Of a DNA stretch of 63,022 nucleotides, positions 47,251-55,471 are shown piece after piece; the first letter of the stretch is position 1; each line of letters opens with the position of its first letter. The stretch is from positions 1 through 63,022 of the forward strand of contig CAZMSC010000007.1 of assembly GCA_964568845.1 (NCBI GenBank), in the 5' to 3' direction. This DNA is from an uncultured Candidatus Bathyarchaeia archaeon. GTDB taxonomy: Archaea; Thermoproteota; CALKCG01; B24. The notes beneath the pieces were generated by a model, which did not search any database, was not told the DNA's origin, and saw nothing but the letters and a program-made list of their open reading frames with translations. Made by a program: the position numbers and the translations under genes.

Positions 47251-49668
47251 ATGGATTCTGGAGGATTTAAACCGAAGATTAGAGAGAAGAGGTGGACGCC
47301 TGAAAATGAAGCTAAACTTATAGAACTCTGGGAGAAAGAAGAACAGTACAAGTTTAATCCAAACTCCGGCAAAACAATAGTCGTCATAGATACACCTCCT
47401 CCCTACGCGTCAGGAAAGTGGCATGTAGGAGGGGCCGCACACTACGCGCAGATAGATATGGTTGCTAGAAGCCTTAGAATGCGAGGCTATGAAGTACTAT
47501 TCCCCTTCGGAGTGGATAGGAATGGGCTTCCAGTTGAGGTTCAGGTTGAGAAGAAGTACGCTGTGAAGGCGTATGAAATCGATAGAGTGAAGTTTGAAGA
47601 ACTCTGTCGACAGTTCTTAGACGAGGTTGAAGTTGAACTTCTGAACATAGCTAGACGTTTAGGTTTAAGTTGCGACTTTAAAAACTACTATCAAACGGAC
47701 AGTTCGGATTACAGGAGGATTACTCAAGCTACTTTCATAGAGCTCTGGCATAGAGGGTTGATTTATGAAGCCGAGTATCCCGTAAACTGGTGTCCATCAT
47801 GTAGAACATCGATAGCAGATGCTGAAGTTGAGTACGAGGAGAAAGACACCCCGTTTGTATACATGAGGTTTAAAGTTAAAGAGTCCGGTGAAACCATACT
47901 TGTTGCTTCTACAAGGCCGGAGCTTCTATGCACTTGTTCAGCCGTAATGTTCAACCCGAAAGATGATAGATACAAGCACTTGGAAGGGAAAACAGCAGTA
48001 GTTCCAATATATGGGAGGGAGGTTCCCATAATACCGCATCCCTATGCTAAACCGGAGTTCGGCTCAGGGCTTGTAATGGTTTGCTCCTACGGTGATAAGG
48101 CAGACATCCAGTTATTCAGAGAACTTAATTTAAAGCCAGTTATAGCGATAAACCTTGATGGGAGAATGAATGAGAATGCTGGAGATTATATTGGCCTCAC
48201 GGTTAAAGAGGCCAGAAACAGAATAATCGAAGATCTACGTAGTAGGAATATGCTTGAAAAGGTAGAAAAACTACGTCATAAAACACCCATCTGCTGGAGG
48301 TCTAAGGATCCGATCGAATTCGTACTTGTAAGAGAATACTATCTGAAGCAGTTAGACTTCCTAGATGAGATAAGGAAGGTCGTAGATAAAATGAAGTTTT
48401 ACCCTGAAAGAGGTAGACAGTTGCTTTTAGAATGGGTGAATAGTATTTCAATGGACTGGCCTATTTCAAGGAGAAGGTTTTACGCAACTGAAATACCCAT
48501 ATGGTACTGTAAGAACTGTGGCAGGCCGAGCCTCCCAGAACCCGGAAGATACTATAAGCCTTGGAATGAAAGACCCCCGTTCAGCAAATGTCACTATTGT
48601 GGCGGTTCGGAATTCGAAGGAGAGTGGCGGACGTTTGACACATGGATCGACTCAAGTATAAGTCCACTATACATATCGATGTACGGTAGAGACCATAAAA
48701 TGTTTGAAAAGGTTTTCCAACTCGTCCTTAGACCTCAAGGATATGAAATAATCAGGACATGGCTCTACTATACTATTCTAAGAGTTTACCAGCTCTTAGG
48801 GAAGCCTGCTTTCGCATGGGTTAGAATATCTGGAATGGGTTTAGATGAGAAGGGTGAGGCTATGCATAAATCTAAGGGGAACGTTGTTGACCCTGAACCC
48901 GTGGTCAAACGTTATGGTGCTGACGCCTTCCGATTCTGGGCTTCTTCAGAGGTCAAACTCGGATCTGATTACAGGTATTCAGATGAGAAGATTAAATCTG
49001 CATGGCTTTTCGTGACTAAGCTTTGGAACGTGGCGAGATTTATATCATGTTTCCCCCAAGTCGATAAACCGGATAAACTGGAACCGCTTGACCAGTGGAT
49101 TCTCGCTGAGGTTAATAGACTTATTGAAGTATGCCTGAAAGACTTTGAAAACCTCGACTTCTTTGAAGCCAGTAACGGCATTAGGTTCTTCCTATGGCAT
49201 GTTTTAGCGGATCACTATTTAGAGGCCGTTAAACCTAGAGCTTACAATAAAAATGGGGCTTTCAAACCGGAAGCTCAGCGTTCAGCATGGTATACACTTC
49301 ACGAGGTTCTCAAAACTATATTGAGACTTCTAGCACCTATATGCCCCTTTATAACAGACGAGTTGTGGAGAGAACTCTACGGTGGAAGCATCCACTTAGA
49401 GGAGATGCCCGTTAAAAAATCTGTTGACGAGAGGCTCACAAGGCTTACGGAGACGTTGATCGAATTCAACAGCAGTATTTGGAAGCTTAAAAAAAGGCTT
49501 AAAATACCCTTAAGCGGTTCATTGAAGGGTACCGTTTATACGTCGAAAGAACTTGAACCCTTCTCTGAAGACTTAAGGTTGATGCATGGTTTGGAAAGAC
49601 TGAGGTTCACTCCCCCTCCGGCTGAAGCAGAGCAGGTAGGCGGTTCTACTTACTATTCTCCAGTTTAA
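47251..49668 (+). CDS. valS: Valyl-tRNA synthetase
   Basis: TPPPYASGKWHVGG..Y...D...R..RMRGYEVLFPFGVDRNGLPVE is the archaeal ValS pattern. The CP1 editing domain and AMHKSKGNVV (KMSKS) are present. LeuRS is less likely given the 805-aa length. Confidence 0.85.
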   Translation: MDSGGFKPKIREKRWTPENEAKLIELWEKEEQYKFNPNSGKTIVVIDTPPPYASGKWHVGGAAHYAQIDMVARSLRMRGYEVLFPFGVDRNGLPVEVQVEKKYAVKAYEIDRVKFEELCRQFLDEVEVELLNIARRLGLSCDFKNYYQTDSSDYRRITQATFIELWHRGLIYEAEYPVNWCPSCRTSIADAEVEYEEKDTPFVYMRFKVKESGETILVASTRPELLCTCSAVMFNPKDDRYKHLEGKTAVVPIYGREVPIIPHPYAKPEFGSGLVMVCSYGDKADIQLFRELNLKPVIAINLDGRMNENAGDYIGLTVKEARNRIIEDLRSRNMLEKVEKLRHKTPICWRSKDPIEFVLVREYYLKQLDFLDEIRKVVDKMKFYPERGRQLLLEWVNSISMDWPISRRRFYATEIPIWYCKNCGRPSLPEPGRYYKPWNERPPFSKCHYCGGSEFEGEWRTFDTWIDSSISPLYISMYGRDHKMFEKVFQLVLRPQGYEIIRTWLYYTILRVYQLLGKPAFAWVRISGMGLDEKGEAMHKSKGNVVDPEPVVKRYGADAFRFWASSEVKLGSDYRYSDEKIKSAWLFVTKLWNVARFISCFPQVDKPDKLEPLDQWILAEVNRLIEVCLKDFENLDFFEASNGIRFFLWHVLADHYLEAVKPRAYNKNGAFKPEAQRSAWYTLHEVLKTILRLLAPICPFITDELWRELYGGSIHLEEMPVKKSVDERLTRLTETLIEFNSSIWKLKKRLKIPLSGSLKGTVYTSKELEPFSEDLRLMHGLERLRFTPPPAEAEQVGGSTYYSPV

Positions 49669-50401
49669 CATGTGCTTTTCCGCTTGTAAGCTTCAAAATT
49701 CCGACCCTACTTAAGGTTTTAATGAGCGGTAGTGCCACTATTAATCCTATGACCATTTGGCCGATGTTTACAGGGACTTCTGCTAATGCATAATAGCCCA
49801 ATACTAGGCTTTCGTAAAGATAGTAGCCCAAAACCATCTCTACTCCTCCAATCAGGATGGAGATCGCGTACATGGTTAAATTATGCTCTACTTTAAAGGA
49901 GAATGTAGCCATAGCTAGAAAAACTAGGCAGGCTAAAATCGTCCAGATAACTGTTGAAAGCTCACCTCTGACTATGATGAGTGAGCCCAAGTATGCCTCT
50001 GTAACACCACTATATACAGTTGAGCCGACAATTCCGAGAGTTAGACTGATGAGGGCTGGTAGTGTCATGTTCATAGTTTTTAAACTCCAACCTTTTAGTT
50101 TAAGCTTCTGAACTAGAAGGCCGACTATGAATCCTTCCACTCCCTTAATCACAAGGGTTCCCGGAGCATAGATATGGTAGCCAAGTATTATATCGGCTAA
50201 CATGGATCCAACGCCGCCAGCCACGGCCCCTATGAAAGGTCCGAGTAGTATGGCTGTTGTGTAAACCATTACTTCTCCTAGATTGAAATATCCCTTCGTA
50301 GCTGGCACGTATACCGAGAAGCTTATGGTGGCTACTGTTGTTAAAGCCGTAAATATGGCAGTTAGACTTACCTTTAAAGACTTTTTAGAGGATAACGTCA
50401 T
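49646..50401 (-). CDS. ECF-transporter S-component-like membrane protein
   Basis: LTAIFTALTTVATI...GYFNLGEVMVYTTAILLGPFIGAVAGGVGSMLADIILGY is present. Its 3' end overlaps the valS 3' end convergently by 23 nt. Confidence 0.5.
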   Translation of the reverse strand: MTLSSKKSLKVSLTAIFTALTTVATISFSVYVPATKGYFNLGEVMVYTTAILLGPFIGAVAGGVGSMLADIILGYHIYAPGTLVIKGVEGFIVGLLVQKLKLKGWSLKTMNMTLPALISLTLGIVGSTVYSGVTEAYLGSLIIVRGELSTVIWTILACLVFLAMATFSFKVEHNLTMYAISILIGGVEMVLGYYLYESLVLGYYALAEVPVNIGQMVIGLIVALPLIKTLSRVGILKLTSGKAHVKLENSK

Positions 50402-51225: not shown

Positions 51226-52329
51226 ATGTCGGATAAGGTAACAATATCCCTCATAAAAGCAGACGTAGGCTCCCTAGCTGGACACCACATAGTCTACCGA
51301 GAGCAGATAGAACTTGCTAGGAAGAAATTGCAGGAAGCTAAGGAGAAAGGGCTTCTAATCGACTACTACGTATTTAACGCTGGCGACGACCTCGAGCTTT
51401 TGATGACGCATAGGGAAGGGGAGAGTAGCCCTAAGATACACGGTTTAGCTTGGGATACTTTTAAAGAAGTTACTGAGAAGGTTTCTAGACCTCTTAAGCT
51501 TTATGCAGCTGGTCAAGACCTCCTCGTAGAAGCGTTTTCAGGAAACGTTAAAGGCATGGGTCCTGGAGTAGCGGAAATGGAGATAGAGGAGCGTAGAAGT
51601 GAGCCTATAGTTGTTTTTGCCGCTGATAAGACTGAGCCTGGCGCTTGGAACCTAATACTATACAAGATTTTCGCGGATCCTTGGAATACCGCAGGTCTCA
51701 TACTAGACCCTGTCATGCACGACGGCTTCACGTTCAGAGTTATGGACGTTCAGAAGGGTGAGTGCATAGACCTATCTACTCCAAGTGAAATCTACAGTCT
51801 ACTGGCCCTCATAGGTACAACAGGTAGATACGTTATCGAGAGGATCTGGAGGAATTCAGATAAATTGATAGCCGCGGTCGCCAGCGTTACAAGGCTCTCT
51901 CTAATAGCTGGTAGGTATGTAGGTAAAGACGACCCAGTTTGCATCGTGAGATGTCAACATGGACTCCCGGCAGTCGGCGAAGCTCTAGCACCATTCTTCA
52001 CACCCCACTTCGTAGCTGGTTGGATGAGGGGGTCGCATTATGGCCCTCTAATGCCCGTAGGCTTAAAAGACAGCAGATGCTCATTCTTCGATGGACCGCC
52101 TAGAGTAGTAGCTTTAGGCTTTCAGCTTTCAGCCGGAAAGCTTGTAGGGCCAGCTGATCTGTTTGAAGACGCAGCCTTCGACCACGCCAGAAGAACAGCT
52201 CTACAGATGGCTGAATTGATCAGGAGAAACGGACCAATAGCTCCAGCAATACTTGGAATGGAAGAACTAGAGTATACTGGTATCGTTGAGACTTTAAAGA
52301 AGCTTCAAAGCAGATTCTTTAAAGTATAA
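51226..52329 (+). CDS. fbp: Fructose-1,6-bisphosphate aldolase/phosphatase (class V FBPase)
   Basis: ISLIKADVGSLAGHH is present, and the protein is collinear with the archaeal bifunctional FBPA/P over its full length. Confidence 0.9.
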   Translation: MSDKVTISLIKADVGSLAGHHIVYREQIELARKKLQEAKEKGLLIDYYVFNAGDDLELLMTHREGESSPKIHGLAWDTFKEVTEKVSRPLKLYAAGQDLLVEAFSGNVKGMGPGVAEMEIEERRSEPIVVFAADKTEPGAWNLILYKIFADPWNTAGLILDPVMHDGFTFRVMDVQKGECIDLSTPSEIYSLLALIGTTGRYVIERIWRNSDKLIAAVASVTRLSLIAGRYVGKDDPVCIVRCQHGLPAVGEALAPFFTPHFVAGWMRGSHYGPLMPVGLKDSRCSFFDGPPRVVALGFQLSAGKLVGPADLFEDAAFDHARRTALQMAELIRRNGPIAPAILGMEELEYTGIVETLKKLQSRFFKV

Positions 52330-52487: not shown

Positions 52488-52757
52488 GTCAAAAGGTAGC
52501 GTCGTCTAAAGTCGAAAGGTCCCGCTCAACGGAGATTGTTACGTCCCTTTAACCCGCCCTTCGGGGTGGTTTAAAGGTACGTAATAAATCCCAGCGAGCG
52601 AGGCTAAGTAGATAGGTCGTGCGGGGTGTTTCCAAGTCGAAAGGCTTGGAAACGGGCTAACCGCAAGGTTAGCTTAAACCTGCAGAAATGACGTCCATAA
52701 CCACCCCTCGGGTTGGTTATGGAAGGTGGGAGGATCGGCCTCTCTCCGCTACCTGAC
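52488..52757 (+). ncRNA. Structured ncRNA candidate of unassigned family
   Basis: The terminal helix pairs GUCA-(AAA)-GGUAGCG at 52488-52501 with CGCUACC-UGAC at 52747-52757. It encloses four hairpins. Hairpin A is 52531-52592 with a UUCG loop, about 25 bp with bulges. Hairpin B is 52628-52653, 11 bp with a GAAA loop. Hairpin C is 52656-52673, 7 bp with a GCAA loop. Hairpin D is 52694-52723, about 13 bp. G.U pairs (G52556.U52567 and U52637.G52644) work only on the + strand. No ORF is present. An oligo-T (tttt, 52766-52769) follows. The element is G+C-rich relative to the A/T-rich flanks. Confidence 0.6.
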
Positions 52758-52769
52758 AAGCGACATTTT

Positions 52770-53036
52770 CTAAACTCTATATATCAGAATGCTCCGTTGC
52801 CCTTTATCTGTTAAAAACCATTTAACGGGTCTACCTTTACGTTTAATGACAACCCCCTCTTTCTCCAGGTTCTTAATCTGTTTGAATAACGTCTGATAGC
52901 TTATACCCGTGGTTTTCGAGACCTCTTCTATGCTTGTGCATCCGCTTTTAAGGGCTTTTATTATTAAGGTTCTGGTTTTAAGTCCTCTATTCACATTCCG
53001 TATTACCGTTAAATGGGATTGCGGTTCATACTCCAT
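52770..53036 (-). CDS. Small winged-helix-turn-helix transcriptional regulator
   Basis: The 88-aa protein has ..IIKALKSGCTSIEEVSKTTGISYQTLFKQIKNLEKEGVVIKRKG..W.LT.KG, an ArsR/MarR-like wHTH layout. Confidence 0.55.
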   Translation of the reverse strand: MEYEPQSHLTVIRNVNRGLKTRTLIIKALKSGCTSIEEVSKTTGISYQTLFKQIKNLEKEGVVIKRKGRPVKWFLTDKGQRSILIYRV

Positions 53037-53379: not shown

Positions 53380-54402
53380 ATGTCTGAAAGACTCATCGAT
53401 GGGGATATCGTTAAGACAGAGGACGGATTCATCTTCTACGTTTTCGGCTATGAACACCCTGAGGATCGCTATATAACGTATTTAAAGTATGTGCCTGAGC
53501 GTTTTAAAAGCCTCTTTAAAATCGAGTTTCTACCGTGGGTTTGGAGGCTTGAGGAAGAAATATACGTAAGACCAGTTAACCTGTACAGTCCTGAGAATAT
53601 TCAGGAGATTGTAAGGGTTTTCAATGAGCGCTTCCCAAAATACGTATATGAATGTCCATACAATTCTAAAGTTTTAATATCTGTCCCTAGAGACATGGTG
53701 AGGTATACCTTTAAACCAGGGGAAGCGTTCTCCAGGCTTATGAGTAAAACCAACCGCCTTCCAGTGGAGAATGTAGCCGTTGAATGGATTAAGCTGATTT
53801 CTTCTGAGGCTGATGTTGATTTAAAAAGCTTCGGTATACACGGCTCTCTATGTCTAGGTATGACATCTGAAAAACCCGATGTAGACGTTGTCATATATGG
53901 TGGGTTAAACTTCAGAAAGGTGAGAAATACCGTGAGTAAATTAGTCTCTAAGGGCATTATAAAGTACATGTACGAGAACGAGTTCGATAAGTTTAGGAAG
54001 AATAAACTCTCCTACAAGGGTTTTAAAGTAGTCTTCAACGCCGTCAGGAAGCCTGATGAAATAAGAGATTTTTACGGTGCCTACAGGAGAATGCCTATAA
54101 AGACCGTGAAGTTTAGATGTATGGTTGAATCCGCTGAAGAGTCTTTCTTCAGACCAGCGATATATAGTATTTCAGAGTACAGGGCTGTCAACGAAGAGTC
54201 TAGGCTTCCCCCTGAGATGAGGCCTAGAGAAGTCGTTGTTATGGATAGCACATATAGAGGCTTAGCATATGAGGGTGATCTGCTTGAAGTTCAGGGGCTG
54301 TTAGAACGTGAAGTATCCACTTCAAGCAACGTTGAGAAATATAGAGTTGTAGTAGGCTCCGGTAGACCGGGTGAATACGTTCAAGTTAGGAAGCTGTACT
54401 AG
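53380..54402 (+). CDS. Pol-beta-fold nucleotidyltransferase with an OB-like C-terminal domain (paralog 1)
   Basis: The NTase signature is [24 protein letters not shown] (hG[GS]x10DxD). The N-terminal module is [33 protein letters not shown]. The C-terminal beta-rich segment (..FRCMVES....FRPAIYSI........[25 protein letters not shown]) looks OB-like. Confidence 0.6.
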
Positions 54403-54403
54403 A

Positions 54404-55471
54404 ATGAGATTGAGAGATAGAGACTACATAGTAGGTTTAAACGGTCTGATATTTAGAGTCTTGGGGTATTCTCATCCATCAGATGGATACGTGTGCGACC
54501 TTGAATACGTCCCCTCAAGCCTATACCGTTCTAATAACGCTAGAGCTCCAAGAGGATATGGCACTATATCCCATTACAAGCTTTACGGTGACGAGCCGTT
54601 TAAACTCATAAACGGTTGTTTTCCAGAATACAGGGTCTACTACAGGCCTTTAAATACATATCTACCGGGTGTTCCAGCAAACCTCATAGGCGAGGTTAAA
54701 CTTCCAAGAGGCGGTTTGACGAGGCTCATCAGCTCTTTAAGGGATGGGCTTTCAATAGCTCTAGAGAATCTCATCGGTATGGTTTTAGAGTCTTCGAAGT
54801 TGAGTCTAGGAGATTTCGGGGTCTTCGGCTCTCTACTCTTAAACTTCTATCATCCAGACTTCTCAGACTTCGACCTTATCGTTTACGGGTCTGAGAATTT
54901 GAGGGAGCTTAGAGATTGTTTAAGTGCACTCTACGATGGGCGTTTCCTTAGAAATGAGTTTGAATTCCCGTCTGAAGACTCACGTCTTAAATGGAAGTTT
55001 AAAAACTACCCTTACAGACTATTTATTCTTCATCAGAAGAGGAAGCTGATATATGCCATTTATAAGCCATCCGGCTTCAGACCGGTTAAAGTAGAGTTTG
55101 AACCTGTTAAGGGTTATGGAGAAATAGTGGATGAATACGGCTCTATAAAAAGCATCGTTAGGTTAGGGTGGTTTAAGGCTTTTGCAACAATACTCGACGA
55201 TTCTGAGGCGGCGTTTATGCCATCCATATACAAAGTTGAGGTTGAGAGTGTTGTAGAAGGATTCAAAGTAGATGATGTAAGACGTATAGTATCCTATGTG
55301 GAAGAATATAGGCTTCAAGCCTTCAAAGATGAACGGGTATACGTTGAAGGATGGCTTGAGAAAGTTGAAACCTCAACCGGGGCCTTCCATCAGATAGCCT
55401 TAACGTATGGTCCAAGATACTATGAGCAGACGTTATACTCCCTAGACCTGCTTTCATCTCCCTATTCCTGA
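54404..55471 (+). CDS. Pol-beta-fold nucleotidyltransferase with an OB-like C-terminal domain (paralog 2)
   Basis: It has the same architecture as paralog 1: RDRDYIVGLNGLIFRVLGYSHPSDGYVCDLEYVP, then FGVFGSLLLNFYHPDFSDFDLIVYG. I place the start at the ATG at 54404, 1 nt after the upstream TAG. The track ORF begins at 54371. Confidence 0.6.
   Translation: MRLRDRDYIVGLNGLIFRVLGYSHPSDGYVCDLEYVPSSLYRSNNARAPRGYGTISHYKLYGDEPFKLINGCFPEYRVYYRPLNTYLPGVPANLIGEVKLPRGGLTRLISSLRDGLSIALENLIGMVLESSKLSLGDFGVFGSLLLNFYHPDFSDFDLIVYGSENLRELRDCLSALYDGRFLRNEFEFPSEDSRLKWKFKNYPYRLFILHQKRKLIYAIYKPSGFRPVKVEFEPVKGYGEIVDEYGSIKSIVRLGWFKAFATILDDSEAAFMPSIYKVEVESVVEGFKVDDVRRIVSYVEEYRLQAFKDERVYVEGWLEKVETSTGAFHQIALTYGPRYYEQTLYSLDLLSSPYS

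Follow-up and report, generated by a model that had tools for sequence, protein, structure and literature searches.

What would an archaeon do with two adjacent, related nucleotidyltransferases that each end in an OB fold? The question is raised by a pair of genes, here called A and B, in a stretch of 63,022 nucleotides (contig CAZMSC010000007.1 of assembly GCA_964568845.1, positions 1 to 63,022 of the forward strand; hereinafter the window) from an uncultured hot-spring archaeon of the Candidatus Bathyarchaeia, whose assembly (50 contigs, 1.55 Mb) has a completeness of 88%. We find that A and B belong to two of the four clades of a three-domain nucleotidyltransferase (NTase) family, and that the closest genomic and phyletic partner of this family is a CitG-like gene. 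By analogy with known systems, we tentatively favour the reading that these ancient clades work with the CitG-like enzyme to make a methanopterin-type one-carbon (C1) carrier, or to re-tail it after uptake, through a CitX/MdcG-like phosphoribosyl transfer that follows the CitG step. A and B are thus more likely to be cofactor-building enzymes than RNA-modifying ones.

The tandem pair and its four-clade family

The features of the pair are listed below with their positions in the window.

53380..54402, + strand: gene A (P0001), 340 amino acids, clade A (clade support 1.0), from the open reading frame (ORF) list and its translation
54404..55471, + strand: gene B (P0002), 355 amino acids, clade B (clade support 1.0), from the ORF and its translation, with a PF01909 match of 23.3 bits
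54400..54406, + strand: junction of the two genes, consisting of the TAG of A, one base and the ATG of B, read directly from the sequence
53842..53886, + strand: catalytic motifs of A, G155-S156 ... D167-x-D169, at 1.00 in 52 clade-A proteins and invariant in a 120-sequence alignment
54827..54874, + strand: catalytic motifs of B, G142-S143 ... D155-x-D157, invariant both within clade B (43 proteins) and across 148 diverse members of the family
54404..54733, + strand: N-terminal beta-rich domain of B, residues 1-110, with the motif F..V.G..HP, conserved across all four clades
54734..55120, + strand: Pol-beta-type NTase core of B, residues about 111-239, from VIA-align
54082..54390, + strand: C-terminal OB fold of A, residues about 235-337, from VIA-align (match over residues 240-338)
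55145..55441, + strand: C-terminal OB fold of B, residues about 248-346, from VIA-align (match over residues 254-348) and Foldseek

Both ORFs are present and their products are paralogues, with 28% identity across 351 columns (E 4e-20), as the first-pass annotation of this DNA had held. It had also placed the second ATG a single nucleotide past the first stop, and this is what the junction shows: it reads ...CTG TAC TAG A ATG AGA..., the TAG of A occupying 54400-54402 and the ATG of B starting at 54404. B is also readable as a longer, GTG-initiated frame from 54371; read from the ATG at 54404 it begins MRLRDRD..., in agreement with the N-termini of the remaining paralogues. Sequence searches recovered 254 homologues of A at E<=0.001 among 1263 candidates and 1337 homologues of B among 3538, the nearest of which carry the names Candidatus Bathyarchaeia or Bathyarchaeota; relatives of the pair bear the JGI label 'predicted nucleotidyltransferase'. 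The earlier description of the two as proteins of unknown function likewise holds, as neither matches a characterised family: B matches PF01909 (NTP_transf_2) just above the cut-off of 21 bits, A has no Pfam match, and neither has a match in NCBIfam or a related entry among the PDB sequences. Across 35 further family proteins, PF01909 scored above the 21-bit cut-off in 13, below it in 14 and not at all in eight, and PF22600 gave sub-threshold matches in two of the 35 (19.4 and 16.4 bits against a cut-off of 27).

The three-part architecture that had been proposed for the pair, with an N-terminal module, a Pol-beta NTase core and a C-terminal OB domain, is confirmed by the agreement of motifs with AlphaFold2 models and fold searches. 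Both proteins share the N-terminal motif D.D...G.IF.V.GY.HP.D....L.YVP, and both keep the GS...DxD signature, with a spacing of 10 residues from S to D in A and 11 in B. The catalytic aspartates had been singled out for a conservation check, and G139, G142, S143, D155 and D157 (B numbering) prove invariant in 148 diverse family members. The models, built from alignments of 120-121 sequences, have a pLDDT of 94.6 for A and 94.2 for B. Compared with 48,161 chains using VIA-align, the core of B (match over residues 111-238) lies nearest to TUT7 (Z 7.3, 95 aligned residues, root-mean-square deviation (rmsd) 3.6) and Trf4 (Z 7.0), with Pol beta, mu and X at Z 5.8-6.5, its OB domain matches the SSB chain 3lgj_B and the MCM N-domain 4me3_A (Z 6.9; 82 aligned, rmsd 2.7), and the OB domain of A matches the SSB chain 3ulp_A (Z 8.8, 83 aligned, rmsd 2.4); these Z values fall in a range common among unrelated models, and what they establish for the predicted structures is folds and not functions. 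All 50 of the best rows for A are OB folds, and its NTase core is accordingly assigned from motifs and homology to B. A Foldseek search against the PDB gave nothing at E<=0.001, the best rows again being SSB OB folds (for B, probability 1.00 and E 2.8e-3). The N-terminal domain (residues 1-110) lies outside all the VIA-align rows listed, and an Atlas search yielded no usable match for it. A prediction of the A+B complex using both alignments returned scores of 0.00, 0.33 and 0.01, which are uninformative either way about binding.

These structural likenesses bear on the activity on RNA or tRNA 3'-ends or bases which the first-pass annotation had suggested, and which may be restated as follows: the proteins would be 3'-end nucleotidyltransferases of RNA, tRNA or single-stranded DNA, the OB domain holding the nucleic acid while the core adds nucleotides, with A and B forming a heteromer or differing in nucleotide specificity. 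The nearest relatives of the core by fold, namely TUT7, Trf4 of TRAMP, TUT1, GLD-2 and Pol X (Z 6-7.3), share its hG[GS] and DxD motifs; those of the OB domain, bacterial SSB, archaeal RPA and the MCM N-terminal domain (Z up to 8.8), bind nucleic acid, and the existence of four paralogues that keep their catalytic residues while differing in an invariant loop residue would fit a set of such enzymes. However, those Z scores lie within the range common for unrelated models, identity to the tailing enzymes is 8-19%, and Pfam finds no PAP-associated, central, tRNA-NTase or other RNA-NTase accessory domain in A or B. Unlike in SSB, RPA or MCM, the OB fold is fused to an NTase, and in clades A, B and D, three of the four, its median isoelectric point is acidic (5.2-5.5); a nucleic-acid-binding role for it is putative. 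We consider this explanation unlikely, and return to it below with the genomic context.

The family was delineated with a profile made from the paralogues of the host genome, which retrieved 1599 representative clusters at E<=0.001, of which 503 remain at E<=1e-30. The host carries four copies: A>B in the window and a divergent pair, C<D>, on contig 38 (C of 343 and D of 350 amino acids). A maximum-likelihood tree was computed from 172 full-length proteins of 80 public loci and the host genome, after dropping sequences shorter than 300 or longer than 420 residues or scoring below 200 bits. It resolves four clades: A (n=52, support 1.0), B (n=43, 1.0), C (n=33, 0.98) and D (n=44, 0.83). The G..GS, SD.D and YG motifs are at or near 1.00 in each of them, and every clade has a further conserved acid (E227 in A, E240 in B, E231 in C, D239 in D), which on sequence grounds is a candidate third carboxylate. 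What distinguishes the clades is the glycine loop G-x-[H/F/S/T]-G-S, in which the invariant residue is H, F, S and T for clades A, B, C and D, respectively; clade B alone has, in addition, an invariant E231 and E233 on the strand that follows the DxD strand. Since the catalytic motifs are kept while the invariant loop residue changes from clade to clade, the four look like subfunctionalised active enzymes and not decayed copies, and the clade-specific residue suggests different substrates or steps for each.

This pattern also bears on the notion that A, B or both are non-catalytic or regulatory partners of a core C/D pair, for instance as scaffolds of a hetero-oligomer, or have an unrelated lineage-specific role. 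The branches leading to A and B are long (0.76 and 1.49 in the same tree), their family-profile scores (300 and 264 bits) fall below the 406-428 of C and D, A lacks a Pfam match, and the two genes usually lie beside C or D, all of which would fit such a role. Against this, GS and DxD stand at 1.00 in both clades, the further acid is retained in both, and clade B even has two additional invariant glutamates; we therefore regard this as the least probable of the alternatives considered here. In the reading that we favour, C and D form a widespread core pair, and A and B a faster-evolving pair that is co-inherited and, by prediction, usually co-transcribed.

The tandem is not confined to the host genome, and its context is conserved, recurring in both Bathyarchaeia and Asgard archaea. 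The loci contain 60 ORFs of clade A, with fragments counted apart, of which five lie at locus ends and 55 are informative; in 42 of the 55, B follows on the same strand at a distance of no more than 300 bp. As for the other 13, B is 327-4194 bp downstream in four, D comes between A and B in three, D lies 1.3 kb away in one, and five have no B in the flank. All five Asgard regions examined contain the A>B tandem. When loci of at least 12 kb are considered (n=42), all four clades are found together in three, three clades in 22, two in 12 and one in five; C or D is thus usually near A/B, and 37 of the 42 carry two or more clades. On a broader scale, the family was detected in 12 of 14 genomes of an order-level sample (11 with four matches and one with five), in 154 of 301 genomes of Thermoproteota (1-5 matches each) and in 56 of 81 Asgard genomes, where 19 have four matches, two have five, two have three, 24 have two and nine have one. 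Carriers of the family also include a Sulfolobales MAG (L072) and Vulcanisaeta sp. JCM 14467 (L082). An Atlas search with clade D returned nothing beyond the same uncharacterised family. One contig filed as Anaerolineae bacterium (L074), from a genome with two family copies (G305), shows the order C > flavoprotein > DHPS-like > D > RFAP synthase; this points to mis-binning of the contig or else to uptake of the archaeal module by a bacterium.

Genomic and phyletic partners

We clustered the neighbouring ORFs of the 80 loci within a flank of 6 kb and annotated the recurrent clusters, which are listed here with the number of loci in which they occur.

FTR (PF01913/PF02741): 23 of 80 loci
CitG-like protein (PF01874, E 3e-76): 21 of 80 loci
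163-residue winged-helix-like protein (no confident family): 20 of 80 loci
ECF-type S-component-like membrane protein (PF07155/PF12822): 19 of 80 loci
FwdD-like protein: 15 of 80 loci
AfpA/DmrX-like flavoprotein (TIGR02699/TIGR02700): 12 of 80 loci
FwdA (TIGR03121): 6 of 80 loci
Mch (TIGR03120): 5 of 80 loci
MJ0301-type DHPS-like protein (TIGR00284, 375 bits): 5 of 80 loci
beta-RFAP synthase (NF040726/TIGR00144): 5 of 80 loci

If CitG-like, RFAP synthase, DHPS-like, AfpA-like, Mch, FTR, FwdA and FwdD-like clusters are counted as C1-cofactor genes, at least one of them is found within 6 kb in 48 of the 80 loci. These neighbours recur in different phyla, in diverse arrangements. In an uncultured archaeon (L069), a member of the Jordarchaeia (L073) and one of the Freyarchaeota (L079), the order is RFAP synthase > flavoprotein > DHPS-like > C > D > CitG<, and a Baldrarchaeum locus (L062) has the same order minus the CitG-like gene. 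Vulcanisaeta shows FwdD, FwdA, Mch, D, CitG; Desulfurococcaceae and Sulfolobales show CitG< ABC ABC D>; and many Bathyarchaeia show A> B> C< ECF-S< CitG>, or FTR> D< ... A> B>. As the gene orders vary among lineages, the link is not explained by one inherited block. The CitG-like gene and a family gene are immediate neighbours in four genomes of the same order as the window (G006, G007, G008 and G011), and a hand comparison of the rows listed for the phylum sample finds the two no more than 5 kb apart in at least 38 genomes. Bathyarchaeum-type loci have an Asn-synthetase-like PP-loop gene and an Rce1-like gene between D and A; the former gave no match when searched against the host genome, and both were set aside as functional partners and attributed to local synteny.

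The phyletic pattern parallels these neighbourhoods. Among the 301 genomes of Thermoproteota, the family and the CitG-like gene are both present in 141 and both absent from 145, with the family alone in 13 and the CitG-like gene alone in two; for beta-RFAP synthase the corresponding figures are 115 with both, 143 with neither, 39 with the family alone and four with the synthase alone, and all these counts describe a pattern and are no test of it, related genomes not being independent, so that they overstate the support. Whole taxonomic families are concordant for the family, the CitG-like gene and RFAP synthase, with presence in 0 of 45 genomes in f5 and in 13 of 13 in f12.

A domain fusion points in the same direction. 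The 505-residue protein P0337 combines a bacterial-type HPPK domain (PF01288, E 3e-40, residues 8-134) with a full family module at residues 173-497, and thereby connects the family with pterin chemistry by evidence other than gene neighbourhoods. It forms a singleton cluster present on two contigs and counts as one observation. No fused forms of the family of at least 614 residues were found, which is weak evidence.

The association with a CitG-like gene invites comparison with the CitG+CitX and MdcB+MdcG systems. The likeness lies in the partner, a CitG-family gene (PF01874), and in the predicted transfer from a triphosphate, with release of pyrophosphate, by a DxD enzyme. MdcG, moreover, was reportedly recognised as a Pol-beta-type NTase by Hoenke et al. 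in 2000. The differences are that the family has no detectable sequence relation to E. coli CitX and, in the 37 members scanned, no Pfam match to CitX or MdcG, that its proteins of about 350 residues have three domains, including an OB fold, and occur as up to four paralogues, and that their context is one of pterin and C1-cofactor genes with no acyl carrier protein or lyase genes nearby.

Taken at face value, the comparison would make the family holo-protein synthases: the CitG-like enzyme would produce triphosphoribosyl-dephospho-CoA or a similar compound, and the NTases would transfer the phosphoribosyl prosthetic group onto a serine residue, either of a carrier protein or of a protein of the C1 pathway, in the manner of CitX and MdcG on acyl carrier proteins. 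The tight adjacency and co-occurrence of the two genes are compatible with this, as are the fact that the known partners of CitG and MdcB modify proteins, the adjacency of citXG in E. coli, the potential of the OB fold or the N-terminal domain to dock a protein, and the persistence of the family in genomes without RFAP synthase. However, no acyl-carrier-protein, citrate lyase or malonate decarboxylase genes are among the recurrent neighbours, similarity to CitX is lacking, and RFAP synthase, the DHPS-like neighbours and the HPPK fusion indicate a small-molecule pterin pathway. We hence find protein modification improbable, and the acceptor, given the pterin and C1-cofactor context, is probably a small molecule.

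A candidate role in a methanopterin-type tail

The tail of methanopterin consists of ribitol-(alpha)ribose-5-phosphate-hydroxyglutarate, and the chemistry of CitG places an alpha-linked 5-triphosphoribosyl group onto a hydroxyl with release of adenine. We propose the CitG-like enzyme and the family NTases for the tail because the product of such a pair would match it. By analogy with CitG+CitX and MdcB+MdcG, the CitG-like enzyme would first use ATP to load a hydroxyl of the pterin-aminophenyl-ribitol intermediate with an alpha-linked 5-triphosphoribosyl group, adenine leaving. In the second step, a family NTase could bring an acceptor hydroxyl to attack the alpha-phosphate of that triphosphate at its putative two-metal GS/DxD site; in the third, pyrophosphate would leave and a phosphodiester would form, the candidate being the ribose-5-phosphate-hydroxyglutarate link of methanopterin.

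Published gene orders in methylotrophs connect CitG-like genes to the tetrahydromethanopterin (H4MPT) pathway. In the methylotroph island mch-orf5-orf7, orf7 is given as a protein of the H4MPT-linked C1 transfer pathway (PMC3615186), and in a gene table for Methylomonas the entries Mch, alpha-L-glutamate ligase and triphosphoribosyl-dephospho-CoA synthase stand consecutively (PMC11533326). The CitG homologue is not orf21 of methylotrophs, which is MfnE (PMC8141765); the CitG-like gene is orf7 (PMC3615186; PMC11533326). A literature search found no paper on the NTase family, on COG1665, to which the first-pass annotation had likened it, or on enzymes for the ribose-phosphate-hydroxyglutarate steps. 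To our knowledge, the late steps of tetrahydromethanopterin synthesis in White's work, namely the attachment of alpha-ribose-5-phosphate and its joining to hydroxyglutarate, have no assigned enzymes. The CitG-like enzyme and the family NTases would thus provide a concrete and chemically coherent candidate pair for them, in a cofactor on which methanogenesis, archaeal Wood-Ljungdahl carbon fixation and bacterial formaldehyde oxidation depend.

Several observations weigh against this assignment, in addition to the dependence among genomes mentioned above. Aligned to E. coli CitX, the family profile (148 members) receives an hhalign probability of 0.6%, and the claim is therefore limited to the family working like CitX, with no claim of membership. 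The best structural neighbours are RNA-tailing NTases for the core and OB folds that bind single-stranded DNA or RNA for the C-terminus. A C1-cofactor gene is absent from the flank in 32 of the 80 loci, including those of the closest relatives; no pathway gene adjoins A/B in the window, and the downstream flank of the three closest loci (L005, L006 and L007) has only Ham1 and a sugar nucleotidyltransferase. RFAP synthase has no match in 39 of the 154 family-positive genomes of Thermoproteota and is found in 0 of 8 genomes of families f1 and f2 of the host's order. The host genome itself, at the completeness given above, yields no beta-RFAP synthase above the cut-off, no DHPS-like protein and no MptA-type GTP cyclohydrolase. 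Finally, a KTI12/PSTK-like P-loop kinase gene lies directly upstream of A>B in three of the five Asgard loci examined:

L089, 6378-7148: KTI12/PSTK-like kinase gene
L092, 5761-6633: KTI12/PSTK-like kinase gene
L090, 9735-10595: KTI12/PSTK-like kinase gene

In one of these, L089, archaeal SelB and SepSecS follow at a distance of a few kb, which makes for a tRNA-related context. Together with a structured noncoding RNA that lies 620 bp upstream of the pair in the window, the kinase loci add to what would favour an enzyme acting on RNA or tRNA ends. Yet L089, L090 and L092 are syntenic kin of each other, and the RNA accompanies A/B only in L005-L007, which are close relatives. The recurrent neighbours are cofactor genes and not RNA-processing ones, the phyletic pattern tracks the CitG-like gene, HPPK is fused to a family member and the OB domains are mostly acidic; it is on these grounds that we depart from the RNA-modifying role suggested in the first-pass annotation and retain the methanopterin-type cofactor as the preferred target.

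How does the host genome fit with this assignment? It carries FTR, Mch, FwdA and FwdD, and its CitG-like gene (PF01874, E 6e-55) is on contig 21, followed by an ECF-S-like gene, away from A/B. A single-sequence tblastn search missed the ECF-S-like protein of the host, of which a profile search found two clear copies and a weak one, and the other negatives for this genome are weak for that reason. Either the early pathway genes are too divergent or unassembled, or a precursor is taken up by this lineage, which carries out only the final steps. That these genes were not detected weakens a simple pathway story for A/B in the host and motivates a salvage variant. In its most elaborate form, which we put forward as doubtful, the four clades would constitute an assembly line or a hetero-oligomer in which each NTase adds a different phosphodiester-linked unit, building the tail of a methanopterin-like carrier or rebuilding it after uptake via the linked ECF-type S component; lineages with no detectable RFAP synthase, DHPS-like protein or MptA that have FTR, Mch, Fwd, the CitG-like enzyme and A-D would then salvage and re-tail an imported pterin precursor. 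The persistence of the module without early pathway genes suggests such cofactor salvage in uncultured Bathyarchaeia and Asgard archaea, and the four-clade structure raises the question of undescribed variants of the cofactor tail.

Upstream RNA and other surroundings of the pair

The region ahead of A/B contains two conserved elements, given here with their positions in the window.

52495-52757, + strand: structured RNA of about 260 nt, between an upstream gene that ends at 52329 and the winged-helix gene, 620 bp upstream of A/B
52770-53036, - strand: gene for an 88-residue winged-helix protein, divergent from gene A, with HTH_29, TrmB and HTH_24 matches at E ~1e-6

The RNA has a minimum free energy of -133.7 kcal/mol (z -8.08 against shuffles), and an A/T-rich, TATA-like stretch is situated about 25 nt ahead of its 5' helix. 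No Rfam family matched it. RNase P RNA and SRP RNA were considered and ruled out, as these are found on contigs 11 and 31, respectively. Copies with 87-89% identity occupy the same position in L005, L006 and L007, and compensatory changes are seen in 7 of 101 predicted pairs across the four sequences. The DNA of the winged-helix gene is conserved at 77-82% in the same three loci, and its product is a different protein from the 163-residue winged-helix-like neighbour recurring in 20 of the 80 loci. A survey of whether the RNA and the winged-helix gene co-occur with A/B, as had been proposed, hence gave a divided outcome: they do in L005-L007, and the association does not extend beyond these three.

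Further upstream, 3 kb before A, the window encodes an ECF-type riboflavin-transporter S component (49646-50401, - strand; PF07155, E 1.4e-34), which has a weak relationship (E 5.5e-6) to the ECF-S-like family accompanying the CitG-like gene; clear copies of that family are on contigs 3 and 21. Paralogous nitroreductase-family genes (PF00881) are found both beside C/D (contig 38; L002, 2590-3108) and beside the CitG-like gene (contig 21; L085, 811-1335).

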